A DNA stretch of 64,000 bases from Gammaproteobacteria bacterium (lineage in GTDB: Bacteria; Pseudomonadota; Gammaproteobacteria; JABABF01; JAHRAO01). The position numbers were made by a program, and so were the translations under genes. The first letter of the stretch is position 1, and the number at the start of each line of letters is the position of its first letter. This document shows positions 3,617 through 62,819 of this stretch, piece after piece. The stretch is from the NCBI GenBank assembly GCA_020027215.1, contig JAHRAO010000038.1:30179-94178 (forward strand), in the 5' to 3' direction. The notes under the pieces were generated by a model. That model ran no database searches. It had not been told where the DNA came from and was given only the letters and a program-made list of their open reading frames with translations.

Positions 3617-4180
3617 TGTGCCCCGTTGGGCGAGATGCTGGCGGTAGTAATGCCAACGAAAAGCTGGACCCGGGTCAGTTTTGCGTTCTGGCGCAATATC
3701 GCTATGGCCGCAGATATGCTTCATCTCAGGGTAATGGTGCTGGAGGATAAGGGTGAGGGTGACGAGAGAGTCGTATTGCGCTATTTCGTAAGGGGTATGA
3801 TCGCTCCCTTCTAATTCTACACCGATACTAAAATCATTGCATTGTGTGCGCCCTTGAAACGCCGATTGTCCGGCGTGCCACGCCGCTAAATGAAATGGCA
3901 CGTATTGCGTCATAGTGCCGTTGCGCTCAATAAAGATATGTGCGGATACCCGCAATTCATGAATAGTCGCAAAATAAGGGTGGGCCGACGGATCGAGCGT
4001 ATTACAAAATAGTTGATGAATATAGTGTGCATGAAACTCTCCCGGCGGCAAACTAATATTATGGATAACCAATAATTGAATAGGGCACCGAGATGGGCGC
4101 GGTGAGTGATTAGGGGAGGGGATATGGCGGATATTTGTTATCCATCCGTTGCGGATGTGCAGTGCATCGTCATTTTTCAT
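3605..4180 (-). CDS. ampD: 1,6-anhydro-N-acetylmuramyl-L-alanine amidase AmpD (N-acetylmuramoyl-L-alanine amidase family 2)
   Basis: [61 protein letters not shown]...WHAG...[11 protein letters not shown] aligns along its full length with E. coli AmpD. I chose the internal Met ([13 protein letters not shown]) as start. The longer 236-aa ORF would overlap gspB by 145 nt. Confidence 0.75.
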
Positions 4181-5057
4181 TGACGGCAATGCGGAATAAT
4201 TGTTCTTGGTGACGGAATACGACTTCGTTTTCAAATATTTCTTTGACGAAGATACCATTTTGCATGGTATCGCCTTGTCGCAAAAATTCATCATTGGCAA
4301 TAATAAACCGTCCATGGGTATTGTGGGGGGAAAAAACCTGTGCCGTAATCCGAATATAAGGGATTAATTGACGCTGTGGGTTCGGCAAATTTTCCCAGAA
4401 AGGTATCGTAGGGTCGGCAGCACGAGACAATGATGTGGTGTTTGTCATTGTGTGCGAGAGCAATTGTTGCGCATCGGGCACCTCTGATAGAGTATGTGCT
4501 AAAGATGTATGCGTTGAATCGCCCTGCGGAGAAAGCGGTTGGCGGGCAGTGCCTAAAAGAGTAGACGAAATAGCGCCGACAGTGTTGTCCGTAGCGACTA
4601 AATCCTTTGCAGTCGTTTGACCCATCTGTGCACTCGTAGATGAAATAGCGATAGATGCGGTGGAATCAGAATGATCCACGGACGCTGGCAAATTATCAAT
4701 GGATCCTGGTGTGTGCTGTGTGGTAATGACTGGACTCGATGGAAGAATAATAGGCTCTATTGAGGGTTGATGTTGCGTGAATGGTTGGGTACTCGGTGTG
4801 TGATTATGCAACAAAGTGGGCGATGATTCTTCGTTCCACTGTGTTGGCGGGGACACAATATTATTGTGCGTTGATTGATACCACCAAAACCATGCCGCAG
4901 CATTGAGGATAAAGATTGCGCCCCCCACGATGAATAGAATTGCTTTGTAAGATACGGGGCGTGGCGTCTCCTGCCAATCAATGCCACCGCGATCTGTATT
5001 TTTTTCGCGTAGTCGTTCACGTTCAGATTTTTTGAGCGCCTCTAAGATATAGGACAT
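4170..5057 (-). CDS. gspB: Type II secretion accessory protein GspB/ExeB-like
   Basis: N-terminus MSYILEALKKSERERLR is the signature cytoplasmic start of ExeB/GspB. It has one TM segment followed by a long Ser/Thr/Pro-rich periplasmic region. It lies directly downstream of the ExeA-like gene. Confidence 0.6.
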   Translation of the reverse strand: MSYILEALKKSERERLREKNTDRGGIDWQETPRPVSYKAILFIVGGAIFILNAAAWFWWYQSTHNNIVSPPTQWNEESSPTLLHNHTPSTQPFTQHQPSIEPIILPSSPVITTQHTPGSIDNLPASVDHSDSTASIAISSTSAQMGQTTAKDLVATDNTVGAISSTLLGTARQPLSPQGDSTHTSLAHTLSEVPDAQQLLSHTMTNTTSLSRAADPTIPFWENLPNPQRQLIPYIRITAQVFSPHNTHGRFIIANDEFLRQGDTMQNGIFVKEIFENEVVFRHQEQLFRIAVNEK

Positions 5058-5069
5058 TTGTTAATCTTA

Positions 5070-6632
5070 TTATTCATGAGTTGCTGCAGCAATTAAAAAA
5101 GGATGGCTCTGTGCGATTTTATTATTTAAGTGAATAATCGTTTGCGGTCCGAGAATGCCGTCAACAAATAGGTGATGTGTGATCTGAAATTTTTTGAGCC
5201 ATGAGCGCATATTATCCGCAGAAGGCGCAATATCTGGATTGAGTTCGCTGAAATGACGCACAAACCAATCGGGTATGTGATGAGATAAATTGATGGGTTG
5301 CGTATAATTGGGCGGTGCGCGCCACAATAATTGATAATCTCCAAACCATAAATCTTCCAATGTTTGAAGAGATATTTTTATTTTGTCGTCACCGTAAGCA
5401 ATAGTGGCGTGTCTGTCATCCAGTGCAATAAGGGCGACATGAAAAGCGCGACCATTGGGGTTGCGCAATTTATTTAATACGACTGGACGATTGAAACGGC
5501 GGAGCGATCCCATATTCCCTTTCACGGTGAGGCATTTTAATTGCCATTGCCGTGCATATGCACAGGGTAATTCGTGTTGAGTCGGTTGATAATCAATATT
5601 CCAGCGCGCAAATAAAGCCCTGAAAGCTTGTGCTTGTCCGATACGGTTCTCTTCATTTCCCCAACGGTGGAGGGTATTCCACTCGCTGGAATGATGATCT
5701 GTCGGAGGCGGTGAGTCGTAGAATAGTATAAAGACTGCGGCAATAATGCTTACTCCAGCGGCGATCCCCAGCACAGGGTAAACCGGTAAACGCGCAATGT
5801 ATTGCCATAGACGGATAGTCCATAAAGTTGTCCCTAATACTTCACGTGCCGCTTGTTTGAGTATGTGCCGAGTGATAACAGGGTGTTCTTGCGCATAGGC
5901 GCCGAGCAATGCGCGATCGCAAATGGCATTAATAATGCGCGGGATACCGTGGGTGAAGCGATACAATGGGGCAATAAGATTGCGCGCAAAAATGGGGTGA
6001 TGGATGCCAGCAATTTTTAGTCGGTGCTGCAAATAAGGATAAATTTCGTTGTGGGGGAGATGCGGCAAGTGATAGCGGGCTGTAATGCGCTGTGCCATTT
6101 GTTTGAGTTCTTGTTGATTGAGAATGTCACGTAATTCGGGTTGCCCGATTAAAATAATCTGTAGTAATTTGCGTTCGGTGGTTTCTAAATTGGTCAATAA
6201 ACGCAACTGTTCTAATGCTTCAGTGCTCAGATTTTGCGCCTCATCGATAATTAATATTGTGTTGCGCTGGCGAGCATGGGCATCCAATAAATGATCGTTG
6301 AGACGATCGAGCATGGTTTTATTTCCGCGCGCCTGTTTGGGATAACTGACCTTCAATTCATCGCATACTGCGGCGAGTAGTTCTTCTGGATTAAGTTTTG
6401 GATTAACGATCAGTGCGACATCACAATTGGCGGAGATTTGTTGTAATAAACACTGGCACAATAATGTTTTACCTGCCCCTACTTCACCAGTGAGCAGGAC
6501 AAACCCTCCGTTTTCCACGCCATATACTAAATGCGCTAATGCTTCTCGGTGATAGGTGCTGAGATACAAGTAGCGCGGATCAGGTGCAATGGAAAAAGGT
6601 TTTTCTAAAAGACCAAAATAATTTTCATACAT
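5070..6632 (-). CDS. gspA: Type II secretion accessory ATPase GspA/ExeA (AAA+ N-domain, C-terminal peptidoglycan-binding domain)
   Basis: MYENYFGLLEKPFSIAPDPRYLYLSTYHREALAHLVYGV...LLTGEVGAGKTLL matches the ExeA N-terminus with its Walker A. There is a TM segment. The C-terminal ...DGILGPQTIIHLN is a PG-binding-like motif. Confidence 0.8.
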   Translation of the reverse strand: MYENYFGLLEKPFSIAPDPRYLYLSTYHREALAHLVYGVENGGFVLLTGEVGAGKTLLCQCLLQQISANCDVALIVNPKLNPEELLAAVCDELKVSYPKQARGNKTMLDRLNDHLLDAHARQRNTILIIDEAQNLSTEALEQLRLLTNLETTERKLLQIILIGQPELRDILNQQELKQMAQRITARYHLPHLPHNEIYPYLQHRLKIAGIHHPIFARNLIAPLYRFTHGIPRIINAICDRALLGAYAQEHPVITRHILKQAAREVLGTTLWTIRLWQYIARLPVYPVLGIAAGVSIIAAVFILFYDSPPPTDHHSSEWNTLHRWGNEENRIGQAQAFRALFARWNIDYQPTQHELPCAYARQWQLKCLTVKGNMGSLRRFNRPVVLNKLRNPNGRAFHVALIALDDRHATIAYGDDKIKISLQTLEDLWFGDYQLLWRAPPNYTQPINLSHHIPDWFVRHFSELNPDIAPSADNMRSWLKKFQITHHLFVDGILGPQTIIHLNNKIAQSHPFLIAAATHE

Positions 6633-13519: not shown

Positions 13520-14737
13520 GTGGGTGCATACAGCTACCAAGCCATTGCTGTCGGCGGTAAGAAAATAAAAGGCGTTATTGAAGGTGATTCGGAACGGCAC
13601 GTCCGCTCACTGCTCCGCGAAAAAAATCTCAAACCTATTAAAGTAACAGTCACCGCTGCGCAAATTAATGGGCAGACCAGTGGCTTTGCATTCTTCCAAC
13701 CGCGCATTAAAATAGCCGATTTGGCATTGATTACTCGCCAATTGGCTATTTTATTACAAGCGGGATTGCCGCTGGATGAAGCTTTGCAAACCACCGCTCG
13801 CCAAACACGTAAGGCACGGTATACCGGTATGCTCTTGCAAGTGCGCTCGCGAGTGACCGAAGGGCATACTTTAGCCCATGCCCTTGCTGAATACCCAAAA
13901 ATATTCAATGACCTTTATCGTGCTATGGTGCAAGCGGGCGAGCATGCTGGATTTTTAGGCGAAGTATTGGAGCAATTAGCAGAGTACACCGAAGCGCGCC
14001 AACAAGTACAGCAAGAATTGAGTGGTGCTATGATATACCCGATCATTCTAGCGTTGATTGCTTTTGCCGTTGTGGGAGGATTAATGGCTTTTTTAGTTCC
14101 CGAATTGGTGCGTATGTTTGAAAATACAGGCAACGAACTTCCTTTACTCACTCGTATTATTATTGCCGTTAGCGATTATGTCGTCGCTTACGGACTTTGG
14201 ACACTTGGAGGCATGTTGGGTTTGTGGTTTTTAACCATGTTTATTCTGCGTAACCGCAATAATTTAGCGCGTTTCCATCGTGTGGTGTTAAAGATCCCCG
14301 TAATCGGATATTTAATACGCATTGCCAACGCAGCACGATTTTCTAACACCCTCAGCATATTAATGAGTAGCGGAGTGCCTTTGCTGGAAGCCTTGCGCAT
14401 CGCAGGTGAAGTATTATCCAATTTGGTGATGCGTGATTCGTGTTTAGCGATCATCAATGATGTGCGCGAGGGGGGGAGTTTGTACCGTGCATTGGAAAAG
14501 ACCCAGCAATTTCCACCAATGATGGTACATATGGTGGCGAGTGGTGAGGCGAGCGGGGAATTGGAACAAATGCTCACTAAAGTTGCCAATAATCAGGATA
14601 GGGAATTGCGTGCTTATTTGAAAACCGCAATGAACCTGCTTGAACCTTTAATGGTGATCGGTATGGGCGGGATGGTATTGCTGATCGTGCTATCTATTTT
14701 ATTACCTGTCTTTAATCTCAATGATTTGGTAAAATAA
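13520..14737 (+). CDS. gspF: Type II secretion system inner-membrane platform protein GspF
   Basis: 405 aa with three TM segments and GspF/PilC-family repeats. GTG start preceded by AAAGG. N-terminus (M)GAYSYQAIAVGGKKIKGVIEGDSERHV resembles EpsF/GspF. Confidence 0.85.
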   Translation: MGAYSYQAIAVGGKKIKGVIEGDSERHVRSLLREKNLKPIKVTVTAAQINGQTSGFAFFQPRIKIADLALITRQLAILLQAGLPLDEALQTTARQTRKARYTGMLLQVRSRVTEGHTLAHALAEYPKIFNDLYRAMVQAGEHAGFLGEVLEQLAEYTEARQQVQQELSGAMIYPIILALIAFAVVGGLMAFLVPELVRMFENTGNELPLLTRIIIAVSDYVVAYGLWTLGGMLGLWFLTMFILRNRNNLARFHRVVLKIPVIGYLIRIANAARFSNTLSILMSSGVPLLEALRIAGEVLSNLVMRDSCLAIINDVREGGSLYRALEKTQQFPPMMVHMVASGEASGELEQMLTKVANNQDRELRAYLKTAMNLLEPLMVIGMGGMVLLIVLSILLPVFNLNDLVK

Positions 14738-14783
14738 TGGTGAAGGGTCAATGAATCAATGCATAATAAAAGAAGGTAATACC

Positions 14784-15227
14784 ATGCACGCATATCAAAA
14801 TTTGCATAAAAAGCAAAGAGGGTTTAGCCTGATTGAGATATTGGTCGTACTAGTGATCATGGGTATTCTTATTTCTTTAGTTGCTCCCAACGTCCTCAAT
14901 CGTATTGGACAAGCGCAGTCCCAAAAAGTATTCAGCGATTTTAAGGCTATTGAGACGGCTTTGACGATGTATAAATTGGATAATTTCAAGTATCCCGATA
15001 GTCAGCAGGGACTGAATGCATTGGTGGGTGGTGACAATTCGGGTTCGGGGTCTCATTGGCGCAAAGGCGGCTATTTGAAAGATACGCCTAAAGATCCATG
15101 GAATCAACCCTATAAATACTTAAGCCCAGGCCAAAACGGCGAGTACGATCTCTATACTTTAGGTGCAGATAATGCAGTCGGTGGTGAAGGGCAAGATGCC
15201 GATATCGGTAATTGGCAGGAAAAATAA
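14784..15227 (+). CDS. gspG: Type II secretion major pseudopilin GspG
   Basis: Prepilin leader MHAYQNLHKKQRG|FSLIEILVVLVIMGIL. Good RBS AAGAAGG before the ATG at 14784. Confidence 0.9.
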   Translation: MHAYQNLHKKQRGFSLIEILVVLVIMGILISLVAPNVLNRIGQAQSQKVFSDFKAIETALTMYKLDNFKYPDSQQGLNALVGGDNSGSGSHWRKGGYLKDTPKDPWNQPYKYLSPGQNGEYDLYTLGADNAVGGEGQDADIGNWQEK

Positions 15228-15834
15228 TAGACAGAGCGACTACCCCGCATTACGGGGATTTACTCTACTTGAAATACTAGTTGTCGTTTTTGTTATCGGT
15301 TTGGCGGCAAGTGTGGTCACCCTAACCATTAACCGTAGCCCAGATTCCCGAATTAAAAAAGCAACCGAGCAATTGTATAACAATCTCAGTTTGGCACAAG
15401 AAGAGGCTGTATTGCAGAATAATTGGTTGGGATTACGGTTAGAACGGGATGAAGACAGAACGGGCTATAATCGTTATCGTTGGTTGTTTTCCACCGATGA
15501 AGCGCAGACGTGGCAACAAATGACGAGTCAATTTTTTAGTGATGTCCAGCTGGGGGAATCACTCCAAATCATTTTAGAAATTGAAGATGGTATTGAACCA
15601 TCACGCGAGCAGGAACGCTTAGATTCCAATCTTTTTTTTGCCAACCCTTCACCCGATGAAGACGAACAGGAAGAAAAACGCCCCCAAGAACCGCCACCGC
15701 ATATCATATTTTACCCAGATGGCGGTAGCGACCCTTTTACAATTACAGTCAACCATCAAGACGGTGAGGGTGAAGAGTTAGCAATAGTTGGTGATGCGTT
15801 AGGGCGGTTAACTATACCTCACCCTGATGAATAA
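15196..15834 (+). CDS. gspH: Type II secretion minor pseudopilin GspH
   Basis: ...ALRG|FTLLEILVVVFVIGLAASVV is a prepilin-type N-terminus. Start is uncertain: ATG at 15196 or 15163. Confidence 0.75.
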   Translation: MPISVIGRKNNRQSDYPALRGFTLLEILVVVFVIGLAASVVTLTINRSPDSRIKKATEQLYNNLSLAQEEAVLQNNWLGLRLERDEDRTGYNRYRWLFSTDEAQTWQQMTSQFFSDVQLGESLQIILEIEDGIEPSREQERLDSNLFFANPSPDEDEQEEKRPQEPPPHIIFYPDGGSDPFTITVNHQDGEGEELAIVGDALGRLTIPHPDE

Positions 15835-16243
15835 GCATTCTCCCCGCACAACTGGTTTTACGCTATTGGAGGTATTGATTGCGCTCGCTATCGTGGCTAT
15901 TGCTCTACCGCCACTCCTCACCAACGCAATTGAGCAAATGAATGGTATTGGTCAATTACGCGAGCGCACTATTGCCCAATGGGTGGCACTCAATCGATTG
16001 ACTGCATTGAGATTGACCAACCATCACAGTGGAAAAGTCGCTCGCGGCCGTAGTAGCGGTCGTAGCGATATGTCTGGTGCGGTGTGGTATTGGACTGTCG
16101 AAACACAGGATACCGAATTGAAGAATTTTTACAAAATTGAAGTATCGGTTAGCGCTCAAGAAAACGGTGCAGCTTTAATTACTTTATCAACCTATTTGAA
16201 TGAATTTACCCCTGACCCTCCCCCGCGCTCGGGACTCAATTAG
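15827..16243 (+). CDS. gspI: Type II secretion minor pseudopilin GspI
   Basis: MNKHSPRTTG|FTLLEVLIALAIVAIALP. Confidence 0.8.
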   Translation: MNKHSPRTTGFTLLEVLIALAIVAIALPPLLTNAIEQMNGIGQLRERTIAQWVALNRLTALRLTNHHSGKVARGRSSGRSDMSGAVWYWTVETQDTELKNFYKIEVSVSAQENGAALITLSTYLNEFTPDPPPRSGLN

Positions 16244-16247
16244 ATCT

Positions 16248-16892
16248 GTGACTCGTATTCAAGTGGCTGGATTTACTTTAATTGAGGTTCTGATCGCGAT
16301 GGCGATCAGTGCTATAGTCGGTGTGATGGCATTTAGTAGTTTGGACGTGACCAGTCGTGCCTTAGATGTTAATCGCCGTTATGCTGAACGCTTGAGCGAA
16401 GTTAATCGCACCTGGGCAGTGATCGCACGCGATCTGCGTCAAACTATTCCGCGCAGTGTGCGTAACCAATACGGTACTGCGCAAGCGGCTTTATTTGGTG
16501 GCTCAGCAACGCAACCGATATTAGAATTGACGCGCACCGGCTGGATCAATCCGCGGAAACTTTATCGTAGTTCAATGCAACGGGTGAGTTATCACTGGGA
16601 GAACGATAGCCTTTACCGTGAATATTGGCAAAATTTAGATCGTTCAACCCAAAGTCAACCTATCCGTAGCTTATTGTTAGAAGGCGTTACTGATTTTAGG
16701 TTGCGGTTCTTAGATGGCAGTAATGACATCAGTGGCGGGAATGACAATGTATTCGGCGGAATCTGGCGCGAGGATTGGAATGCGAATGCCGTGGAGAGTT
16801 CGTCTATTGCGATGCCTCTTGCTATTGAAGTGACCATTGAGATGGACGATTGGGGCGAAGCACGACGTTTATTTGCTTTGGCGACGCCATGA
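16248..16892 (+). CDS. gspJ: Type II secretion minor pseudopilin GspJ
   Basis: ...IQVAG|FTLIEVLIAMAISAIVG. A GTG at 16248 directly after the gspI stop gives a short leader. The alternative ATG at 16200 is inside gspI. Confidence 0.75.
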   Translation: MTRIQVAGFTLIEVLIAMAISAIVGVMAFSSLDVTSRALDVNRRYAERLSEVNRTWAVIARDLRQTIPRSVRNQYGTAQAALFGGSATQPILELTRTGWINPRKLYRSSMQRVSYHWENDSLYREYWQNLDRSTQSQPIRSLLLEGVTDFRLRFLDGSNDISGGNDNVFGGIWREDWNANAVESSSIAMPLAIEVTIEMDDWGEARRLFALATP

Positions 16893-17956
16893 AGTATTGT
16901 GCTTCCCATAGCGTTTGCGGCGCTGCCTTGATTATTGCTTTACTCGTACTGAGTTTGGTGTCTACTTTGACTGTCGGCATGAGCCAATTTTATATGATTA
17001 CAGTGAAGCGGCATAGCAATACTTACCACGGTGAACAGGCATATATGTTTTTAACCGGTGCTGAAAACTTAGCCCGCCATTGGTTACATACGGAAATTAA
17101 AGAAGACAAACGTGATAACGAATTGAGAGATCATTTAGGCGAAACTTGGGCGCTCACTATACCGCCATTTGAAATAGATGGCGGATTGTTAGAGATCCAG
17201 TTAGAAGATTTGTCTGCTAAATTAAATATTAGTGGGCTCATTAATCGCGATGCTAATCAAGTGGGCAAGCTAGGCGCTGTGCCGTATAATATCCAACAGA
17301 GGCGCTTTATCCGTTTGTTGCAAACATATACGACCAGCAATTACTCTATTAGCACGCCTTTACTCAATCAACAACAGGCGATCCAATTGACGCAGGCATT
17401 AGTGGATTGGTTAGACGACGATAGCCGTGTATCGGGCACCGATAGTATGGAAGATGATGATTATATTGCAGAGTATGGATATCGTGCAGCAAATACTTTG
17501 CCACTCAGCACAACGGAATTACAATTATTACCCTTTTTCCGCAGAATTCCAGGACTATTGGCGCAACTCTACAATGATATTACTGTGTGGCCATTACAGG
17601 GTGATAAAATCAACATTCATACAGCGACCAATAATGTGTTGCGTAGCCTCTATACTGGCAATGGGCTTGCACCATTGGCGAGTGAAGATATTGAGCGGTT
17701 ATTATCCAATAATAACCGCCGAACAAAATGGGCGAGTAAAGAAGTGGGTGGTTTTCTAAGTTTAGAAAGTTTTTTACAACATCCGGTGTGGAATAATAGA
17801 GTGAATAATAGTTATCTTACCGAAACCAGTGAGTATTTTTTGTTTACCGGTAAAGTCACTTTGGGAGAAGTCAGCCGTCAAATGAAAAGCGTATTACACC
17901 GTGATCCAAATACCTTTGCGGTAAAAGCTGTCGTCCGTAGCTTAAGCACACTATGA
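16889..17956 (+). CDS. gspK: Type II secretion minor pseudopilin GspK
   Basis: MKYCASHSVCGAALIIALLVLSLVSTL is a GspK-like N-terminus. ATGA overlap with the gspJ stop. Confidence 0.75.
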   Translation: MKYCASHSVCGAALIIALLVLSLVSTLTVGMSQFYMITVKRHSNTYHGEQAYMFLTGAENLARHWLHTEIKEDKRDNELRDHLGETWALTIPPFEIDGGLLEIQLEDLSAKLNISGLINRDANQVGKLGAVPYNIQQRRFIRLLQTYTTSNYSISTPLLNQQQAIQLTQALVDWLDDDSRVSGTDSMEDDDYIAEYGYRAANTLPLSTTELQLLPFFRRIPGLLAQLYNDITVWPLQGDKINIHTATNNVLRSLYTGNGLAPLASEDIERLLSNNNRRTKWASKEVGGFLSLESFLQHPVWNNRVNNSYLTETSEYFLFTGKVTLGEVSRQMKSVLHRDPNTFAVKAVVRSLSTL

Positions 17957-19188
17957 AATTACTCATTTTGCGCCCGTCCTCACAGACCGATTGCTATGAT
18001 ATTGGAATCTATGCTGAAAAAAGTGCTTGCTTTTATCGTCAGGCGCATACTCCTGTACAAGAAATAAAAAAGCACGTCCGCAATGAAAAAATGCACATTC
18101 TTTTATTATTACCCGCTGAAGTGGTGTTGCTGGATACTTTAGAATTTTCTCCTACCGAACGCCGCCATCTCAATGAAATACTTCCGTATTTGCTGGAAGA
18201 GAAGCTCATTGATGATGTAGATACTTTGCATTGTGCTTACAGTATCACCGATAGTGCTGAAGGAAAAGCATCTGTTGCTGTGGTGGAGCGCGATACCTTC
18301 AGAAAATGGCTCACTCCGTTAGAAGAAAACGATTTATTCCCTGACCAAGTGGTTGCCGAACAACAAGCGCTCCCCACGGTTGAGCAACAATGGACGGGTT
18401 ACTATGGTAATGGATATTTATTGTTGAAATGTGATGCATCCATGGCATTATGTGCGCACCATAATATAGCACAGGCGGCATTAGATTTATTGATCCAAGA
18501 TAAGAAAAAAAAATTACCGACCAATATCATGATTGGGGTCGCCAACGATCACGATCGTCAGGAGGCGCTCGCATTCATTCCAAAAAAAGCGACCCCCAAT
18601 ATTACTTTTGAACAGAGAGATTTTTTTGATATGGTCGCTTTGGCGCATACCGCTCGATCCCCCGCTATCAATTTGTTACAGGGGAATTTTGCCTTAGCTA
18701 TTCCGTGGCAACAATTGTGGCAACAATGGCAAGGCGTCATTGTGGCGGGCGCTATTGCATTGACGGTACTCTTGACCGAAGTCGGGTTGGAATGGCATTC
18801 TGCTCACACGCATAATCGTCAATTACAACAAGCGGTGCAAGAGTTGTATAGCCAATCTTTTGCCAACAGCCCCCTCCCTGCCGACCCATTAGCCTACTTA
18901 AAGTCTCGTTTACAACCTTTACAACGTGTCAATAGTACAAGCGGGTTTTCTGTATTATTGGAAAAAGTGGGGGGCGGCATTCGTCAAGTGCCGGGAATCC
19001 GTATAGACAATATTAACTATAACGGGCAATCGGGTGAAATGAAGGTGGGTATTCTATCCCCAGATTTCCAACGGGTTACGGACTTACGCAATCAGTTGAA
19101 TCTCGTTGGAGTGGAAGTGAAATTGATCAATAGCACTTCGGATAACAACATCATCCGCGCCAATTTATCCTGCCGACAACAGACATGA
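17953..19188 (+). CDS. gspL: Type II secretion protein GspL
   Basis: 411 aa. Cytoplasmic domain, one TM (IVAGAIALTVLL), then a periplasmic domain. Start overlaps the gspK stop. Confidence 0.7.
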   Translation: MKLLILRPSSQTDCYDIGIYAEKSACFYRQAHTPVQEIKKHVRNEKMHILLLLPAEVVLLDTLEFSPTERRHLNEILPYLLEEKLIDDVDTLHCAYSITDSAEGKASVAVVERDTFRKWLTPLEENDLFPDQVVAEQQALPTVEQQWTGYYGNGYLLLKCDASMALCAHHNIAQAALDLLIQDKKKKLPTNIMIGVANDHDRQEALAFIPKKATPNITFEQRDFFDMVALAHTARSPAINLLQGNFALAIPWQQLWQQWQGVIVAGAIALTVLLTEVGLEWHSAHTHNRQLQQAVQELYSQSFANSPLPADPLAYLKSRLQPLQRVNSTSGFSVLLEKVGGGIRQVPGIRIDNINYNGQSGEMKVGILSPDFQRVTDLRNQLNLVGVEVKLINSTSDNNIIRANLSCRQQT

Positions 19189-19655
19189 TAAAAGATTGGT
19201 TGAATAGATTGACAAGTCGTGAGCAATGGTTAGTGCTCGTCATGGGTGCGGGTTTAGTAGTATTGATTGGATATAACGCACTGTGGCAACCATTGAGCAC
19301 AGCCACGCAGACATTACGGGATAAAAATACTTATGCTCACGACACGATTGAATGGATGGTCCAAAACAAAAAAGCAATCAATAGCTTGGGGGAGAGCGGT
19401 ATTGCGTCATCTGATGCCACTGGATTATCGGATATCCTCAATCAATCCATTTCACATCGTGGACTACGCATGAGTCGTTTTCAGCCCGGAGAAAATAATC
19501 AAGCACAGGTCTGGTTAGACGATGTCGTTTTTGATACGCTCGTTTTGTGGCTTCACGATTTAGAGATAACCTATGGTTTGAGTATTCTCAATTTAACCAT
19601 TAATAGTCGCGATACCCTCGGCGAAGTCAATGTGCGCTTGCGCATTCAACAATAA
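19185..19655 (+). CDS. gspM: Type II secretion protein GspM
   Basis: 156 aa. MIKDWLNRLTSREQWLVLVMGAGLVVLIGYNALWQPL matches the GspM N-terminus and TM. Confidence 0.75.
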   Translation: MIKDWLNRLTSREQWLVLVMGAGLVVLIGYNALWQPLSTATQTLRDKNTYAHDTIEWMVQNKKAINSLGESGIASSDATGLSDILNQSISHRGLRMSRFQPGENNQAQVWLDDVVFDTLVLWLHDLEITYGLSILNLTINSRDTLGEVNVRLRIQQ

Positions 19656-19667
19656 AAACAGTCAACA

Positions 19668-20444
19668 ATGAAGTTACTGCCATTTCCTATCCCGCGTGTG
19701 CGTACCATCCTCTTCGTCATAATCCTATTGGTCTTTTTTCTAATTTATAATGCCCCAGCGCGCTTAGTTCATTATGTGTTACCGCCCAATGAAGGGACCG
19801 TATTACCTTATGACATTCAAGGCACCATCTGGAATGGATCTATCGGTACTCTTTTTGTCCAAACCCCCAAACAATGGTTACACTTTAATCAATTGCGCTG
19901 GCAATTATCGCCATGGCATCTCTTTGCTGGGCAATTACGTTATAGGGTGACCTTACAATATTTGCGTCACCCTGCTTTTGCCCATATTGTGTTGCATTTT
20001 GGTGGGATCGATATGGAGCAAGTCCAGATGAGTGGTTTGCCACTGAAGCATTTCCGTGATCTTTTACCTCTTCCTTTAGACGGACAACTCATTATCAATC
20101 TAGAGAGGGTAGAGTTACGGCACCGAGAAATCACGACTATACAGGGTGCTGTTGCTTGGAGTGGTGCGGCAGCGATTATTGGGAGTAATGTAGAAGATTT
20201 TGGCGATTTTTCAATGAAAATTACGACCCCTGAAGAAGGGCAGTTTGCTGGAGAATTGACCGATTTTGGAGGGCATTTAGCATTGAATGGCGGCGCAACA
20301 TATCAGGATAAAAAATTTTCAGTCAAAGTGGAAATTGAGGTGCGTGATTCAGCAAGTCCATCATTGCGCCACGGTGTGCAACTCATTGCTCGCCCACTCG
20401 GCAATAATCGTTTCTTACTAGAATACTCTGGGAATGTGCCCTAA
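19668..20444 (+). CDS. gspN: Type II secretion protein GspN-like
   Basis: 258 aa. N-terminal membrane anchor with a PAR motif (NAPARLVHYVLP), then a periplasmic domain. It is the last gene of the gsp operon, where GspN sits in Aeromonas and Vibrio. Confidence 0.55.
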   Translation: MKLLPFPIPRVRTILFVIILLVFFLIYNAPARLVHYVLPPNEGTVLPYDIQGTIWNGSIGTLFVQTPKQWLHFNQLRWQLSPWHLFAGQLRYRVTLQYLRHPAFAHIVLHFGGIDMEQVQMSGLPLKHFRDLLPLPLDGQLIINLERVELRHREITTIQGAVAWSGAAAIIGSNVEDFGDFSMKITTPEEGQFAGELTDFGGHLALNGGATYQDKKFSVKVEIEVRDSASPSLRHGVQLIARPLGNNRFLLEYSGNVP

Positions 20445-21250: not shown

Positions 21251-21279
21251 TTGTAATTGATGTGCTTTAGTGTTATAAT
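21251..21279 (+). promoter_or_regulatory. Predicted sigma70 promoter for the EGKCG-peptide operon (TTGTAA-17 bp-TATAAT)
   Basis: -35 TTGTAA at 21251-21256. Exactly 17 bp of spacer. -10 TATAAT at 21274-21279. About 75 bp upstream of the precursor ATG. Confidence 0.55.
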
Positions 21280-21353
21280 GAAAAAATTGTGCTTTTAGGG
21301 AAGTTACTCTCATTAGCATTGTGTTAATAATTGAAAATTAGGTGTAATTAATA

Positions 21354-21656
21354 ATGAGTAAAGAAAATAATTTGAATAAAAAAAGCTTGGCTGTTGCCTT
21401 AGGCTCAGTATTCCTTGCTTCTTCCATTGTTCCGTTAGCGAGCGCAGAAAGTACTAATCCTTTCCAAGCAGAGTCACTACAGCATGGTTATGAAGAAGTG
21501 AATTATGGCAGCAAAGCGCCCAAAGGTGAAGAAGGGAAATGTGGTGAAGGCAAATGCGGCGACAAGAAGAAAGGCGAAGGGAAATGTGGTGAAGGCAAAT
21601 GTGGTGACAAGAAGAAAGGCGAAGGGAAGTGCGGCGAGGGCAAATGCGGCCACTAA
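21354..21656 (+). CDS. Secreted RiPP precursor of the Hvf/bufferin type, with tandem EGKCG repeats
   Basis: Sec signal peptide MSKENNLNKKSLAVALGSVFLASSIVPLASA. The core is KGEEGKCGEGKCGDKKK GEGKCGEGKCGDKKK GEGKCGEGKCGH: six Cys, each in an EGKCG motif. It lies immediately upstream of a DUF692 gene. Confidence 0.8.
   Translation: MSKENNLNKKSLAVALGSVFLASSIVPLASAESTNPFQAESLQHGYEEVNYGSKAPKGEEGKCGEGKCGDKKKGEGKCGEGKCGDKKKGEGKCGEGKCGH
21525..21653 (+). repeat. 2.8 tandem copies of a 45-bp unit encoding GEGKCGEGKCGDKKK
   Basis: Copy A 21525-21572 (48 bp, one extra GAA codon). Copy B 21573-21617. Partial copy C 21618-21653. Nucleotide identity between copies is over 90%. Confidence 0.9.
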
Positions 21657-22507
21657 AAGAAGCTGCTACAGTTGTTTCCGGATCTGGGTTAGGCTTAAGA
21701 CGTGATTTCATCACTGACATATTGACCCAGCTTCCGGAGCAAGTGGATTTCATGGAAGTTGCTCCTGAAAACTGGATAGGGATCGGGGGACAGCATGGAA
21801 AACAATTCAGTGCTCTTGCCGAGCATTATCCGATTACGCTACATGGCTTATCGCTCAACATTGGAGGACCAGATCCTTTAGATACAAAACTGATTGATAA
21901 TATTCGCCAATTTATTGATCGCTATCAATGTCCTTTTTACTCCGAACATCTCACTGCCTGTGGGGATCATGGGCACTTGTATGATTTAATGCCGTTGCCT
22001 TTTACCGAAGAGGCGGTGCACTATGTTGCCGAACGAGTGAAAGAAGTACAGGATAGGTTAGGGATGCGTATAGCCTTGGAAAACGCTTCGTACTATACAG
22101 CGTTACAACAAGATTTAAGTGAAAGTGATTTTATCTGTGCAGTATTAAAAGAAGCGGATTGCGATCTGTTGCTGGATATCAACAATATATATGTCAATAG
22201 CGTCAATCATTCGTATGATCCAATTCAATTCTTACGCCGCCTACCCGTGGAACGGGCTATTTATTTCCATATTGCGGGACATTACCGCGAGGCAGAGGAT
22301 TTGCGTATCGATACGCATGGGGCAGATGTGTTAGCAAGAGTGTGGTTTTTGTTGGAAGAAGCCTACCGTCTATTTGGTAGTCAACCGACCTTACTAGAAC
22401 GAGATTTTAATATTCCCCCCTTAGAAACGCTGTTGCTGGAAGTTGAGAGAGTGCGGGCTTTACAGTCCTGTTATTCAGATGACTACAGCTTGCAAGCCGC
22501 GTTATAA
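21629..22507 (+). CDS. DUF692 (UPF0276) multinuclear non-heme iron oxidase (MNIO), MbnB/HvfB/BufB family
   Basis: GLGLRRDFITDIL...DFMEVAPENW...YPITLHGLSLNIGGPDPLD...YSEHL is the canonical DUF692 TIM-barrel pattern. Start is uncertain: the ATG at 21629 overlaps the precursor by 28 nt. Confidence 0.8.
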   Translation: MRRGQMRPLKEAATVVSGSGLGLRRDFITDILTQLPEQVDFMEVAPENWIGIGGQHGKQFSALAEHYPITLHGLSLNIGGPDPLDTKLIDNIRQFIDRYQCPFYSEHLTACGDHGHLYDLMPLPFTEEAVHYVAERVKEVQDRLGMRIALENASYYTALQQDLSESDFICAVLKEADCDLLLDINNIYVNSVNHSYDPIQFLRRLPVERAIYFHIAGHYREAEDLRIDTHGADVLARVWFLLEEAYRLFGSQPTLLERDFNIPPLETLLLEVERVRALQSCYSDDYSLQAAL

Positions 22508-23246
22508 TTTTCAGAAAATACAAGCGCATTTTTCAGCATATTTGCGTGATCCAGAAAACACGCCACCCCCTCCACGTATTCAAGCGCGGCGCTTAAAAAT
22601 TTACAATGATTTATTTTTCAATAATATGTCCAACTTTTTATCTAACGGGTTCCCTGTATTGCGTAAGTTATATCACGACAATGATTGGAACGCGTTGGTG
22701 CGCAATTTTATGCGCGTACACCGTTGCGCGACACCTTATTTTGCCCAAATAGGTCAAGAATTTGTTGCTTACCTACAACACACACATGCCTCCACTCCAG
22801 CTGACCCTCCTTTCCTTATTGAATTGGCTCACTATGAATGGATTGAAACGGCGTTACAATGTGCTGAAGAAGATATACACGGCATAAGCGTTAACCGGGA
22901 TGGCCATTTGTTACAAGAGCGTCCAGTGCTTTCGCCTTTGGTTGTTTCGCTCGTTTATCAGTATCCTGTGCACCAAATTAGCCCCTCATGCCGTCCAGAA
23001 CACCCGTCAGCAACTCCACACTATTTACTTGTTTATCGTGATCGCGCCGATACGGTGCAATTTATGGAAATTAATGATGTGACTGCAGGTTTAATTAGTA
23101 GATTGCAAGAAAATACTCATTTCACCGGAGCAAGAGTACTCCAAGATCTCGCCCACCAGATGAACCAAGATGATGTTTGTCAACATGGAGCGAATATGTT
23201 GTCTTTATTGCGGGAAAAAGATATTCTTTTGGGAACAGCACCATAA
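22479..23246 (+). CDS. DUF2063 partner protein of the MNIO (HvfC/BufC-like)
   Basis: The N-terminus FQKIQAHFSAYLRDPENTPPP matches the conserved DUF2063 start. It overlaps the 3' end of the MNIO gene. The ORF-table start at 22443 is probably too far upstream. Confidence 0.7.
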   Translation: MTTACKPRYNFQKIQAHFSAYLRDPENTPPPPRIQARRLKIYNDLFFNNMSNFLSNGFPVLRKLYHDNDWNALVRNFMRVHRCATPYFAQIGQEFVAYLQHTHASTPADPPFLIELAHYEWIETALQCAEEDIHGISVNRDGHLLQERPVLSPLVVSLVYQYPVHQISPSCRPEHPSATPHYLLVYRDRADTVQFMEINDVTAGLISRLQENTHFTGARVLQDLAHQMNQDDVCQHGANMLSLLREKDILLGTAP

Positions 23247-23250
23247 AAAC

Positions 23251-24015
23251 ATGCAAGTGTCATCGCTGGTTTTACTCATACTGTTAGCCTGCTTAGCGCT
23301 GACTGGATGTGCAAGCCAGCCCGAGCAGGCTAGCGAAGAAGAAGAGTATAGTGTCGGCGATCCTTGGGAAAATTGGAATCGTAAAACACTGAAATTTAAT
23401 TTATGGCTTGATCGTTGGTTCTTGAAACCGCTTGCGAAAGGATATCATTACGTTACGCCCAATATAGTTAACCGCGGGGTAACCAATTTTTTCAATAACT
23501 TAAGCGAGAGTACAAATATGGTGAACAACCTCTTGCAGGGAAAAATAAAAAATACTTTTGTGAGCTTGGGACGTTTCTTGATTAACACCACTATCGGGGT
23601 TGGTGGTTTATTTGATGTGGCGACAAAAATAAAGTTAGAAGAGAAATCAGAGGATTTTGGACAAACTTTAGCCACATGGGGAGTGCCATCAGGCCCTTAT
23701 TTAATGTTGCCGTTTTTTGGTCCGGCGACTTTACGCGATGGTTTGACCAAGATCCCCGATTGGTATACTGACCCCGCCACATATGTTGAACCGGGTCAGG
23801 ATAATATTGGCTTGCGGTTATTGTATTATACCGATCAGCGGGCTGATTTATTAAACCTTGACTCGCTCCTTGATGCAAATCAATATACATTAATTCGTGA
23901 AGTTTATTTACAACACCGTGCTGATCAATTACGCGATGGTGTTGATGATTTGGAGGGAGATGATGATAACGATGAGGCGGAGGAAACGGAGGAAGATTAT
24001 ATTGATGACTTTTAG
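23251..24015 (+). CDS. mlaA: Outer-membrane lipoprotein MlaA/VacJ
   Basis: Lipobox LLACLALTGC, then DPWENWNRKTLKFNLWLDRWFLKPLAKGY, the MlaA signature. Unusual acidic C-terminal tail DDLEGDDDNDEAEETEEDYIDDF. Confidence 0.8.
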   Translation: MQVSSLVLLILLACLALTGCASQPEQASEEEEYSVGDPWENWNRKTLKFNLWLDRWFLKPLAKGYHYVTPNIVNRGVTNFFNNLSESTNMVNNLLQGKIKNTFVSLGRFLINTTIGVGGLFDVATKIKLEEKSEDFGQTLATWGVPSGPYLMLPFFGPATLRDGLTKIPDWYTDPATYVEPGQDNIGLRLLYYTDQRADLLNLDSLLDANQYTLIREVYLQHRADQLRDGVDDLEGDDDNDEAEETEEDYIDDF

Positions 24016-25578: not shown

Positions 25579-25803
25579 ATGATGGCAAGTGATATGATGT
25601 GGCAAGGAGTGGTTTTAATGATTGCCGGTATGGTCACGGTGTTTTCTTTTTTAATTATATTAATACTGTGTTTACACGCTATGTCGGCTATACTGTCGCG
25701 TTTTCCAGATCCCTTATCCACGGGCGCGCAGCTCCCTCAACCCGATCCACGAAAAATTATTGCTGCCGCCACGGCAGTGCATATGGTGCGTCACCGTAAA
25801 TGA
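25579..25803 (+). CDS. oadG: Oxaloacetate decarboxylase gamma subunit
   Basis: 74-aa single-TM protein. It directly precedes oadA, with an ATGA overlap. Confidence 0.6.
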   Translation: MMASDMMWQGVVLMIAGMVTVFSFLIILILCLHAMSAILSRFPDPLSTGAQLPQPDPRKIIAAATAVHMVRHRK

Positions 25804-27578
25804 ACTCTATGCAAAAAAATCCTTTACAAATTACTGAAGTTGTTTTACGCGATGGACACCAATCCTTGCTCGCCACTCGCTTGCGTTTAGACGATATGTT
25901 ACCCATTGCCGAAAAGTTAGATCAAGTGGGATTTTGGTCTTTGGAAACTTGGGGCGGCGCAGTTTTTGATGCGTGTATCCGCTACTTAGGTGAAGATCCA
26001 TGGGAACGTCTGCGCGAACTCAGAAAGGTCTTGCGCCATACACCGCAGCAGATGCTCCTGCGCGGGCAAAATCTTCTCGGTTATCGCCATTATGCCGATG
26101 ATGTGGTCGATAAATTCGTTGAAAGGGCAATAGAAAATGGAGTCAGCATATTCCGCATTTTTGACGCCATGAATGATCCGCGCAATTTAGAGCGATCAAT
26201 TAGTGCGGTATTAAAACAAGGCCAGCACGCACAAGGAACGATCGCTTATACGACGAGTTCGGTGCATACTATAGAGAGCTGGATGGAGTTGGCACATCGC
26301 ATCAGCGATTTAGGCGTGCATTCATTAGCCATTAAAGATATGGCGGGCTTATTGGGCCCATACCAAGCTTATGAGTTAGTGAGTCGACTCAAAAAAGAGC
26401 TGACTATTCCGATCCACATGCAATGTCATGCAACCACTGGCTTTTCCACTCCAGCTATCTTGAAGGCGGTTGAAGCGGGCATTGATAATGTGGATACCTC
26501 TATTTCTTCTATGAGCATGACTTACGGTCATTCGGCTACTGAAACAGTGGTCGCTATGTTTGCCGACATGCCTTGCGACACGGGCTTGTCTTTGCCTCTG
26601 TTAGAAGAGATTGCTTTATATTTTCGCGATGTGCGTGAAAAATATGCCCAATTTGAAGGTAAATTACGTGCGGTAGATGTGCGCATACTCACTGCACAGG
26701 TTCCCGGCGGTATGCTAACCAATATGGAAAACCAACTGCGCGAGCAAAATGCCACAGACCGTTTTGATGAAGTGCTCACTGAAATTCCAGCAGTGCGTAA
26801 AGATTTGGGATTTATCCCTCTAGTGACCCCGACTTCACAAATTGTAGGCACCCAAGCGGTAATGAATGTATTATCCGGCGAACGATATAAAATGATTTCA
26901 AAGGAAGTTGCCGCTATTCTTAAGGGAGAATACGGGGCAACACCCGCCGCGATGGATGAAAAATTACAAAAACGTGTATTGGAGGATGCCGCTGCAATTA
27001 CGTGCCGTCCTGCAGATCTTTTGCCGGATGAATGGCAAAAGCTATACGATGAATTGCATCGCACCAGTGTTGAAAAAAATATTCAACTCGCCCACTGTGC
27101 GGATGAAGATGTGCTCATCTATGCTTTATTTCCCCAAATAGGGCTCAATTTTTTGGCGCATCGCGGGGATGCCAGTGCATTTGAATCACCTCCCGGTACA
27201 CCGCAAGAGATAAAAGATAGGGCGCCGAATCAATCTGCACCCTCCACGAGTGAATCCTATCAAGTCCTCTTGGATGGTCAACAGTATCAGGTAATGGTTC
27301 TTCCCGATACCCAGCCCGCTCCACCATCAGACCAGCAGGCACCATCCGCTGCTGGCGCGCAGCAACAAAATGTCATGAGTGCTCCTTTAGCCGGCAATGT
27401 CTTTAATGTGCTTGTCCAGCCAGGGGATCGCATTACACAAGGACAAGTATTATTCATTTTAGAAGCAATGAAGATGGAAACTGAAATACGTGCCGAGGGG
27501 GATGGCGTCGTTCAATCTATTGCGGTGAAGACAGGTGATAAGGTCAATGTGGGCGATACTTTAATTCACTGGGCTTAA
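25800..27578 (+). CDS. oadA: Oxaloacetate decarboxylase alpha subunit (carboxyltransferase plus biotin carrier)
   Basis: N-terminal pyruvate-carboxylase-like carboxyltransferase domain. C-terminal biotinyl domain with EAMKMETEI. 592 aa. Confidence 0.8.
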
Positions 27579-27583
27579 ACCCT

Positions 27584-28750
27584 ATGGATATACTGTATCA
27601 GCTATGGCTACAGAGCGGACTGAGTCAACTGGAATGGGGGCATGGAGCCATGATCGGCATAGGATGCCTATTGTTATACTTGGCGATTGTGCATCGTTTT
27701 GAACCTCTCTTGCTTGTCCCGATTGGTTTTGGCGCACTCTTAATTAACATCCCGAGTAGCGGTTTTGACACCCCGCCTCTCTACGATCTTGCCGGATCCT
27801 TGCAATCGCCGGGAGGATTGATGTATTACATCTATAATGTCGGTATTGTCACTGGGGTCTTTCCGTTAATTATTTTTATGGGAGTGGGTGCTTTAACTGA
27901 CTTTGGCCCCCTCTTAGCTCACCCTAAAACATTGCTGTTAGGTGCTGCGGCACAATTTGGTATTTTTATTACCGTTCTCGGTTCGCTCGCCCTCAATTAT
28001 TTTGGCATTATTGAATTTACTTTACGTGAAGCGGCGGCAATCGGGATCATCGGTGGCGCCGACGGTCCCACCGCTATTTTTGTGGCGAGCAAGTTAGCCC
28101 CTGACTTGTTAGCGCCTATCGCCATAGCCGCTTATTCGTATATGGCAATGGTGCCTATTATTCAGCCACCGATTATGCGCGCTTTGACGACTGCAAAGGA
28201 GCGCCAAATTAAGATGGTGCAATTAAGGGAAGTGTCTCGCCGCGAGAAGATTATATTTCCATTATTACTACTGGGGTTAGTTGCCTTACTTTTACCGAGC
28301 GCAACTCCTTTATTGGGCATGTTCTGTTTAGGTAATTTAATCCGTGAATGCGGTGTCGTGGAACGGCTCAATCAGACGGTGCAAAATGCACTGATTAATA
28401 CGACGACTATATTTTTGGGTATAGGTATCGGTTCAAGAATGCATGCCGATTTATTTTTGAATGCCAAAACCTTGGGCATATTATTGTTAGGTGCCGTTGC
28501 TTTTTCTATCGGTACGGCAACTGGGGTCTTGATGGCAAAATTGATGAATTACTTCTCACGCCAACCCATCAACCCGTTAATTGGTTCGGCAGGCGTATCC
28601 GCTGTGCCGATGGCTGCACGGGTCTCTAATAAAATTGGATTAGAATCAAACCCCAATAACTTTTTATTGATGCATGCTATGGGACCTAATGTTGCCGGAG
28701 TATTAGGGTCGGCAATTGCTGCAGGAATAATGTTAAGTATGCTTAGCTAA
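27584..28750 (+). CDS. oadB: Oxaloacetate decarboxylase beta subunit (Na+-translocating)
   Basis: 388-aa polytopic membrane protein of the OadB/GcdB family, directly downstream of oadA. Confidence 0.75.
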
Positions 28751-50941: not shown

Positions 50942-51017
50942 GCCGGAATAGCTCAGATGGTAGAGCAGTTCACTCGTAATGAAAAGGTCGGAGGTTCGAC
51001 TCCTCTTTCCGGCACCA
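50942..51017 (+). tRNA. tRNA-Thr (anticodon CGU)
   Basis: GCCGGAATAGCTCAGATGGTAGAGCA...anticodon loop CTCGTAA...GGTTCGACTCC...TTCCGGCACCA. Cloverleaf is consistent; 3' CCA is encoded. Confidence 0.8.
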
Positions 51018-51019
51018 TA

Positions 51020-62136: not shown

Positions 62137-62443
62137 CGAATATAACAAGCACCCATCGCGCACGCGAGCAGATATTGCACAGAGTTTGATAAAAGACATT
62201 GGATTGAATGGCAGAGAAGCGAAAGAAATGGTGGATCTGTTTTTTCAAGAAATATCCGATGCACTCGTGAGCCAACGATCAGTGAAATTATCGGGTTTTG
62301 GTCGTTTTAACTTGCGCGATAAGAATTGCCGTCCTGGTCGTAATCCTAAGACCGGAGAAAGCGTAGTGATTAAAGAGCGGAGGGTTGTAACGTTTAATGC
62401 CAGCGAAAGATTTAAAAAACGAATCAATATCTACCAGAAGTAA
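62114..62443 (+). CDS. ihfA: Integration host factor alpha subunit
   Basis: GREAKEMVDLFFQEISDAL...KLSGFGRFNLRDKNCRPGRNPKTGE matches IHF-alpha almost residue by residue. Start is ambiguous (62114 or 62123). Confidence 0.85.
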   Translation: MGDMSRNDEYNKHPSRTRADIAQSLIKDIGLNGREAKEMVDLFFQEISDALVSQRSVKLSGFGRFNLRDKNCRPGRNPKTGESVVIKERRVVTFNASERFKKRINIYQK

Positions 62444-62819
62444 CGGCAGAAGCGACGGCAAAAGCAATGGTGCCAGATCGGTTCAGGCGCCAAAGATACC
62501 AGGGAAGCGCTATTATACTATTGGTGATGTATGTGCGCTATGCGATGAGCAAACGCATGTTTTGCGTTACTGGGAACAAAATATCCCCCAGTTAAAACCC
62601 AACAAAAGGCGTGGTGGGCGACGTTATTATACCTACAAAGATGTCGTGCTGATTCAAAAAATTCAAAGCATGCTTCGTGAACAGGGCTATAAGATTTCTG
62701 GGGTCAGAAAGTGGTTGGATAATCAGGGTGAAATAGAGCAAATTTCGCTGATTAAACATAAAATGGTGGATTTGCGTAAAGAATTAGAAGAAATTTATGC
62801 CGATCTCCAACCAAAATAA
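62397..62819 (+). CDS. MerR-family transcriptional regulator
   Basis: HTH YYTIGDVCALCDEQTHVLRYWE plus a coiled-coil tail. A MerR-like gene after ihfA and before tRNA-Pro mirrors Pseudomonas gene order. Confidence 0.65.
   Translation: MPAKDLKNESISTRSNGRSDGKSNGARSVQAPKIPGKRYYTIGDVCALCDEQTHVLRYWEQNIPQLKPNKRRGGRRYYTYKDVVLIQKIQSMLREQGYKISGVRKWLDNQGEIEQISLIKHKMVDLRKELEEIYADLQPK

Follow-up and report, generated by a model that had tools for sequence, protein, structure and literature searches.

The hvfABC cluster and its EGKCG-repeat precursor

We analyzed a 64,000-nt stretch of DNA (hereafter, the window) from a Gammaproteobacteria bacterium genome assembly (GCA_020027215.1, contig JAHRAO010000038.1, positions 30,179 to 94,178). 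It carries a cluster of three overlapping, co-directional genes on the + strand, which we named hvfA, hvfB, and hvfC, in the order precursor, multinuclear non-heme iron oxidase (MNIO), and partner protein. A preliminary description of the locus had proposed three such genes for a RiPP, a peptide that is made on the ribosome and modified after translation. We found them at the same positions, with overlaps of 13 nt and 29 nt that, judged from the layout, are typical of translational coupling. The identities of the genes, their family membership, the intact catalytic residues, the operon architecture, and its conservation across relatives are all observed directly.

The first gene, hvfA (21354 to 21656, + strand), is listed among the open reading frames (ORFs) and encodes a precursor of 100 aa including its signal peptide. 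An AGGTG ribosome-binding site precedes the ATG by 9 nt. When the precursor was checked with hidden Markov models, as the preliminary description had suggested, the NCBIfam model NF050137 of the HvfA-family domain (KCGExKCG_twice) matched in three stretches with a score of 55.4 against a cutoff of 19.5. The peptide consists of MSKENNLNKKSLAVALGSVFLASSIVPLASA before the predicted cleavage site, followed by ESTNPFQAESLQHGYEEVNYGSKAPKGE-EGKCGEGKCGDKKK-GEGKCGEGKCGDKKK-GEGKCGEGKCGH.

Residues 1 to 31 (21354 to 21446, + strand) were assigned by inspection and hydropathy as a putative Sec-type signal peptide with a signal peptidase I site at ASA/ES. The signal has a basic n-region (KK), an 18-residue hydrophobic core whose Kyte-Doolittle values reach 2.4, and an A-x-A at positions −3/−1. 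By the same criteria, the precursors of 63 relatives are laid out alike. Inspection of the HvfA N terminus for a lipobox found none. The 100-aa peptide proposed earlier is borne out, with its ORF and its putative Sec-type signal at the expected coordinates. The predicted mature peptide starts with ESTNPFQ and is lysine-rich, with 69 aa, a mass of 7194.9 Da, and six EGKCG motifs.

Its N-terminal region (21447 to 21527, + strand) contains a motif, NPF-x3-(E/D/S)L-x2-GY, that is conserved in the precursors of relatives. In the window, the motif stretch reads ESTNPFQAESLQHGY (21447 to 21500), and in nearly all of 63 relatives' EGKCG precursors the sequence A-(E/D)-NPF-x3-(E/D)L-x2-GY follows right after the signal peptide. 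By analogy, this stretch is probably the docking region for the recognition domain of HvfC, and we put it forward as a candidate. In Microbulbifer, MmrC was modeled engaging the conserved leader of MmrA (PMC12538549), and the corresponding N-terminal region was helpful, not essential, in HvfA (PMC11252979) and FonA (PMC13097082).

The core of the peptide (21528 to 21653, + strand) comprises three 15-residue cassettes of (E/G)EGKCGEGKCG followed by DKKK, DKKK, and H, that is, (E/G)EGKCGEGKCGDKKK twice and then GEGKCGEGKCGH. Tandem Repeats Finder reported a 45-bp unit present in 2.9 copies with 87% matches (21531 to 21661). The three tandem copies described earlier thus hold as a repeat, but they are not identical, as the first begins with E instead of G and the third ends with H instead of DKKK. 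As had also been noted, the translation contains six Cys, each within an EGKCG; there is no Cys elsewhere in the peptide. The DNA differences among the six EGKCG units are all synonymous, and the repeat is therefore under purifying selection at the peptide level and not chance low-complexity sequence.

An exact look-up of the 100-aa precursor found it not on record. Apart from the present assembly, the sequence is public in a single one, a Logan contig from SRR27685851 (L001), which ends inside the 45-bp hvfA repeat, at a point corresponding to about 21572 in the window. Because that contig breaks there, the precursor gene is missing from it, and this explains why the exact protein is not on record.

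HvfB and HvfC are intact members of their families

The second gene, hvfB (21644 to 22507, + strand), encodes an HvfB-family MNIO of 287 aa. The 13-nt overlap arises because its ATG, at 21644, falls within the codons for the last EGKCG of the precursor. The longest ORF would start at a GTG at 21629, but we preferred ATG 21644 because it agrees with an exact 287-aa database entry and the public gene call on an identical contig, and is preceded by a GAGGG Shine-Dalgarno sequence. The proposed DUF692 identity was confirmed by PF05114 (MbnB_TglH_ChrH) at 334.7 bits, and the NCBIfam HvfB family model NF003818 scored 415.4, above its cutoff of 360. All sister MNIO models that we compared stayed below cutoff, including BufB (NF050167, 269 against 310), MbnB (TIGR04159, 57.6 against 325), ApyH (88 against 400), and ChrH (35 against 600).

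HvfB also matches a solved homologue, the HvfB-like protein 3BWW from Pasteurellaceae, at 259 bits. The motifs singled out in the preliminary description, GLGLRR, YPITLHGLSLNIGG, and YSEHL, are present in the sequence and align with 3BWW. An insertion that 3BWW carries between its HIAGH and DTHG motifs, about 14 residues long, is missing from the window HvfB.

To map the iron ligands, we aligned HvfB to the MbnB structures 7TCR and 7DZ9 and to 3BWW. All nine ligands are conserved, with H67, H102, E146, D178, N181, H209, D223, H225, and E252 aligning with MbnB H54, H90, E133, D163, N166, H192, D208, H210, and E239, respectively. In the MbnBC crystal structure, Fe1 is bound by His54, His90, and Glu133 as a bridging ligand, Fe2 by Asp163, His192, and Glu239, and Fe3 by Asn166, Asp208, and His210 (PMC9060507). 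The DINN and DTH motifs of the window protein correspond to the site-3 residues N175, D242, and H244 of HvfB, which are essential, as their substitution abolishes activity.

The third gene, hvfC (22479 to 23246, + strand), encodes a partner protein of 255 aa with an N-terminal DUF2063 domain and a C-terminal NGO1945_C domain. It overlaps hvfB by 29 nt when the ATG of the public gene call (22479) is used; the longest ORF starts at a TTG at 22443. The DUF2063 identity given in the preliminary description was confirmed by PF09836 at 91.2 bits, PF22106 (NGO1945_C) scored 91.8 bits, and the NCBIfam HvfC family model NF050145 scored 298.4 against a cutoff of 142. Among solved structures, HvfC matches 3DEE, a DUF2063 protein of N. 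gonorrhoeae (E = 2.6e-8), and its NGO1945_C domain is RiPP-recognition-element-like. The accompanying statement that DUF692 enzymes need a DUF2063 partner proved too general, since TglH works with TglI (PMC12452194, Table 1) and MbnB works with MbnC (PMC9060507).

The cluster is conserved among relatives

To place the cluster among its relatives, we used 80 loci from a scan of species-representative genomes, whose HvfB proteins are 55 to 64% identical to that of the window. hvfC stands immediately downstream of hvfB in all 80 loci, and in 62 of them a precursor carrying between 1 and 14 EGKCG motifs stands upstream of hvfB. The 15-residue cassette period with DKKK linkers is the commonest type among these precursors; that of L064, for example, has four EGKCGEGKCGDKKKE cassettes. 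On this sequence evidence, the window peptide is a textbook member of its family.

A DoxX gene is close to hvfC in 44 of the 80 relatives and is not nearby in the other 36. With the DoxX proteins of these 44 relatives as queries, tblastn against the whole 64-kb window gave a best E of 0.04. The absence of an adjacent DoxX-type gene or copper regulator, first noted for the cluster, holds and extends to the whole window. The earlier remark that this context is unlike characterized examples can be kept for the missing DoxX only in part. Its absence is a common variant, as no DoxX gene is near the cluster in 36 of the 80 relatives, and the characterized mmrABC of Microbulbifer has been described as comprising three genes.

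As for synteny, the hvf genes of relatives often have rnf genes and nth (31 loci) or lysS (28 loci) upstream, and a DUF1841 gene lies directly upstream in 13 loci. None of these rnf/nth, lysS, and DUF1841 arrangements is present in the window.

The upstream region carries a putative sigma-70-type promoter

A consensus scan of the region upstream of hvfA identified a putative sigma-70-type promoter (21251 to 21279, + strand), named from its consensus match, with a TTGTAA box, a 17-nt spacer, and a TG-extended TATAAT. The near-consensus promoter of the preliminary description is thus present, with 10 of 12 positions matching. The predicted 5′ untranslated region (UTR) is about 67 nt long, and its fold was not significantly different from shuffled sequences (z = 0.41). 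An Rfam scan at gathering thresholds gave no match in the 5′ UTR; three tRNAs were the only Rfam matches across the window.

An 8-nt direct repeat, TGTGCTTT, occurs at 21261 to 21268 and 21288 to 21295, 27 nt apart, and flanks the −10 box. From its position, this repeat could be an operator or a chance occurrence. We dropped an operator call upstream of hvfA, because just this repeat and weak palindromes were seen, which is insufficient for a site.

The relatives differ in this region. An extracytoplasmic function (ECF)/RpoE-like motif (GAAACTT or GAACTT, N14-17, GTC) was found upstream of hvfA in 32 of 58 relatives and on the opposite strand in none of the 58; for the strict form, GAAACTT, about 0.005 occurrences per 300 nt are expected as background. 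The motif lies 77 to 184 nt upstream of hvfA (L004, L006, L022, L023, L025, and others). With strict and loose patterns, no ECF-type promoter was found within 300 nt upstream of the window hvfA. By eye, GGAAGTT-N15-GTGTTA at about 21300 to 21328 weakly resembles one, but it was rejected, as the key GTC is missing. Expression of the window hvfABC thus appears, from the sequence, to start from a near-consensus sigma-70 promoter, unlike the ECF-type promoter of most relatives.

mlaA lies directly downstream of hvfC

The gene downstream of hvfC is mlaA (23251 to 24015, + strand), which encodes an outer-membrane lipoprotein of 254 aa, as identified by PF04333 (242 bits), a lipobox (LTGC), and the public gene call. 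In the Mla lipid-asymmetry system, MlaA is the lipoprotein located in the outer membrane. The mlaA start lies only 4 nt past the hvfC stop (23246 to 23251), and a consensus scan found no promoter-like site just upstream of mlaA. Transcription of hvfC therefore probably reads into mlaA, so that the two would be co-transcribed.

mlaA is also downstream of hvfC and co-directional with it in five relatives (L002, L003, L010, L045, and L068; four Kangiella genomes and one Halieaceae metagenome-assembled genome), where the gaps between the two genes are 67 to 81 nt (e.g., L002 7603 to 7685 and L003 7639 to 7707). Besides mlaA, no flanking gene is common to the mlaA-linked loci. All six, with the window, lack a nearby DoxX, and their precursors share a variant motif tail, GY-[DEN]-[EL]-x-[NQK]-[YF]. 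The mlaA-linked loci grouped exclusively in a neighbor-joining tree built from BLOSUM62 distances, with a bootstrap of 17 to 23 out of 100, but the group was not recovered in a Kimura-distance tree of the concatenated proteins. With such bootstrap values and a second tree without the group, a single origin of these loci was not established. We consider it improbable that the window locus belongs to a DoxX-less hvf sub-lineage in which mlaA has been kept directly downstream of hvfC. Among the papers in the library that was searched, none mentioned MlaA together with an MNIO. If the linkage is functional, it would tie a thiooxazole peptide to outer-membrane lipid homeostasis or vesicle release, and it could explain the surface exposure or secretion of a Sec-exported peptide, as reported for H. 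influenzae.

The window is ordinary chromosomal housekeeping DNA with 44.6% G+C. Directly upstream of the cluster lie a gspF-N type II secretion operon (13520 to 20444, + strand) and a divergent dienelactone hydrolase gene, and downstream of it mlaA is followed by gltX and oadGAB. We considered a link of hvf to the type II secretion operon or the dienelactone hydrolase, but these genes are near hvf in none of the 80 relatives, and we regard them as coincidental neighbors. Farther upstream are gspA/gspB-like genes (4170 to 6632, − strand), which likewise are near hvf in none of the 80 relatives, and downstream of gltX, the oadG-oadA-oadB operon (25579 to 28750) encodes a sodium-pumping oxaloacetate decarboxylase. 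Elsewhere, the longest ORF of a family-4 glycosyltransferase (50957 to 52063) is overlapped at its 5′ end by a tRNA gene (50942 to 51014), and the true start of the glycosyltransferase gene must therefore be farther downstream. The window has no paralogues of the cluster genes, with neither another MNIO or DUF2063 gene nor a further reading frame with EGKCG/KCG repeats. The one MerR-family gene, at 62397 to 62819, was tried as a CueR-type copper regulator and rejected, as it gave no CueR match.

The host is a deep-branching gammaproteobacterium. The best identity of GltX is 60% (Marinimicrobium, Zooshikella, and Acinetobacter) and that of HvfB is 63 to 68%. All the window proteins that were looked up fall into singleton clusters. 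Scanned against metagenomes, MlaA gave a single match, at 38%, which is uninformative.

Comparison with characterized systems

The reference system, in which the family was defined by experiment, is HvfABC of nontypeable H. influenzae, whose 95-aa peptide HvfA combines a Sec signal with three copies of the cassette AEGKCGEGKCG. Its six Cys lose 4 Da apiece through the joint action of HvfB and HvfC, and copper is bound by the resulting product, oxazolin (PMC11252979). The active cofactor of HvfB is a mixed-valent diiron centre, which is formed only with HvfC. The window locus resembles this system in its Sec-signal precursor of about 100 aa, its three xEGKCGEGKCG cassettes with six target Cys, the MNIO iron-ligand set, the partner with DUF2063 and recognition-element-like domains, and the gene order. 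Unlike HvfABC, which is accompanied by HvfX, it lacks DoxX (HvfX) and has mlaA coupled downstream, and its gammaproteobacterial host, of free-living type, belongs to another lineage. DoxX is treated as non-biosynthetic (PMC11252979).

By architecture, the closest published analogue is mmrABC from the marine host Microbulbifer, likened here by layout; both are gammaproteobacterial three-gene clusters. Its product is bulbicupramide, and its precursor MmrA has three cassettes with a total of six Cys in EGKCG motifs (strains range from five to eight), all six of which are modified with the loss of 4H per Cys to give a product that binds Cu(I) (PMC12538549). As in the window, the precursor's N-terminal region is conserved, and DoxX is not mentioned (PMC12538549). 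The two loci differ in their flanking genes; moreover, a possibly intracellular product was discussed for mmrABC, whereas the window precursor has, by inspection, a clear Sec-type signal.

The captophorins, which include fontiphorin and gonophorin, account for more than 20,000 clusters (PMC13097082). FonABC from Fontimonas thermophila and NgoABC from Neisseria gonorrhoeae share with the window an EGKCG-repeat precursor, an MNIO, and a PME1 partner. Their products were shown to contain 5-thiooxazole by nuclear magnetic resonance, with an absorbance near 305 nm, and to bind Cu; the minimal substrate is an EGKCG doublet (PMC13097082). Fontiphorin has seven sites and the window peptide six. Captophorin clusters often include DoxX and regulators, whereas the window cluster has no accessory genes other than, possibly, the linked mlaA.

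The bufferins Buf1 (DUF2282) and Buf2, with BufB and BufC (PMC11626156, PMC12452194), share Sec-signal precursors, a closely related MNIO, and a DUF2063 partner with the window. Bufferins carry thiooxazoles and sequester copper in the periplasm (PMC11626156, PMC12452194). The window precursor, however, had no Pfam match and hence no DUF2282, placing it in a different precursor family, and its MNIO does not reach the BufB cutoff (269 against 310). ECF sigma/NrsF and DoxX genes are also frequent in bufferin clusters. The earlier statement that one bufferin subfamily is defined by EGKCG agrees with a literature profile, Buf_EGKCG/oxazolin, that is based on repeated EGKCG (PMC12452194). That survey counted about 2,000 precursors, mostly from Pseudomonadota, in clusters with precursor, MNIO, DUF2063, and DoxX genes in varied combinations (PMC12452194).

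In the methanobactin system MbnABC, too, an MNIO produces a copper ligand from Cys residues of a ribosomal peptide, and its nine iron-ligand positions are the same. The system differs in its distant enzyme subfamily (57.6 against 325), its MbnC partner, a leader peptide in place of the Sec signal, and an oxazolone/thioamide product that serves copper acquisition and not sequestration.

Proposed biosynthesis and function of the product

Taking the above together, we consider it about 85% probable that the locus is an intact RiPP operon of the hvfABC type (oxazolin/Buf_EGKCG/captophorin) and that the six Cys of its precursor become copper-binding thiooxazoles. We infer the chemistry, the order of export, copper binding, and the physiological role from HvfABC, FonABC, NgoABC, and MmrABC. 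According to this model, hvfA would be translated as a 100-aa pre-peptide, which HvfC would bind through its recognition-element-like C-domain before or during Sec targeting. HvfC would also activate HvfB. With a mixed-valent diiron centre and O2, HvfB would then carry out a four-electron oxidation (−4 Da) of each EGKCG Cys to a 5-thiooxazole. Sec export and cleavage past ASA31 would release a 69-residue, lysine-rich periplasmic peptide bearing six thiol-bearing heterocycles, predicted to be about 24 Da lighter than the unmodified 7194.9 Da. The heterocycles would bind Cu(I), and the peptide would most likely sequester excess copper. By analogy, copper buffering appears to be the best-supported function, and a role in envelope or oxidative stress the main alternative.

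Several observations weigh against this reading. The signal peptide was called by inspection and hydropathy alone. The precursor scored 51.4 with the strict NCBIfam HvfA equivalog NF050188, below its cutoff of 95, and it has no counterpart of the disulfide that joins Cys38 and Cys43 in the N-terminal part of H. influenzae HvfA. For these two reasons, its sequence makes it a member of the HvfA family and not an orthologue of H. influenzae HvfA (NTHI1441). No copper regulator or copper transporter is present in the 64-kb window, so the context does not point specifically to copper. The role is unsettled even for characterized members, for which links to oxidative stress, gold, and virulence were described (PMC11252979, PMC13097082), and the Microbulbifer cluster was not expressed in culture (PMC12538549).

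The main alternative keeps the same biosynthesis but gives the product another role, in envelope or oxidative stress, with another thiophilic metal, or at the cell surface. We judge it somewhat unlikely, at well below even odds. In line with it are the lack of copper genes in the 64 kb, the ECF/RpoE-like promoter of relatives (32 of 58, with 0 of 58 on the opposite strand), which points to envelope-stress control, and the coupling of mlaA, an outer-membrane lipoprotein gene, downstream. The literature also ties these peptides to oxidative stress, gold, and host-cell invasion (PMC12452194, PMC11252979, PMC13097082), and virulence-factor data from H. influenzae suggest action at the cell surface. 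However, all characterized EGKCG products that were tested bind copper (PMC11252979, PMC13097082, PMC12538549), and bufferins protect from copper stress in vivo (PMC12452194). Moreover, copper toxicity overlaps oxidative and envelope stress, and the two roles are thus not exclusive.

A second alternative concerns the chemistry, in that the heterocycles could be oxazolone/thioamide pairs, as in methanobactin, and not 5-thiooxazoles. The preliminary description had allowed for either structure. Oxazolone/thioamide was the original assignment for HvfA (PMC11252979), NCBIfam model names still carry it, and the two, being isomers, are difficult to distinguish (bioRxiv 10.64898/2026.06.05.730506, PMC12538549). 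The Hvf modification has since been reassigned to 5-thiooxazole by the original authors (bioRxiv 10.64898/2026.06.05.730506) and by an independent group (PMC13097082), using alkylation-assisted heteronuclear multiple-bond correlation, labeling, and degradation chemistry, and the oxazolin system was also revised in bioRxiv 10.64898/2026.07.17.739211. Because of this reassignment, thiooxazole is expected here; the window enzyme also scores 415 bits as HvfB against 58 bits as MbnB. Oxazolone/thioamide pairs are accordingly very improbable in this peptide, and of the two structures proposed earlier the thiooxazole is much the likelier.

That the locus encodes an unmodified, Cys-rich, metallothionein-like secreted peptide, or that its enzymes are inactive relics, is hardly credible, as nothing specific speaks for it beyond some precursor genes elsewhere that stand alone with no nearby MNIO (PMC12452194), while the reading frames, all three intact, show translational coupling, the iron ligands are all conserved, the EGKCG codons change synonymously only, and the three-gene arrangement is kept in relatives.

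Implications

The family to which this hvfABC operon belongs is already well known and very large, and the locus challenges nothing in its current understanding. It adds one more intact example of the abundant copper-binding thiooxazole ribosomal peptides, from a lineage without close sequenced relatives. Its practical value is that of a compact test substrate, as the predicted mature peptide offers six sites within 69 residues and no extra Cys. The cluster may also be a natural case of control by a constitutive-type promoter. Finally, the linkage of hvfABC to mlaA and the ECF-type promoter of relatives are small leads on the role that these peptides may play in the cell envelope.

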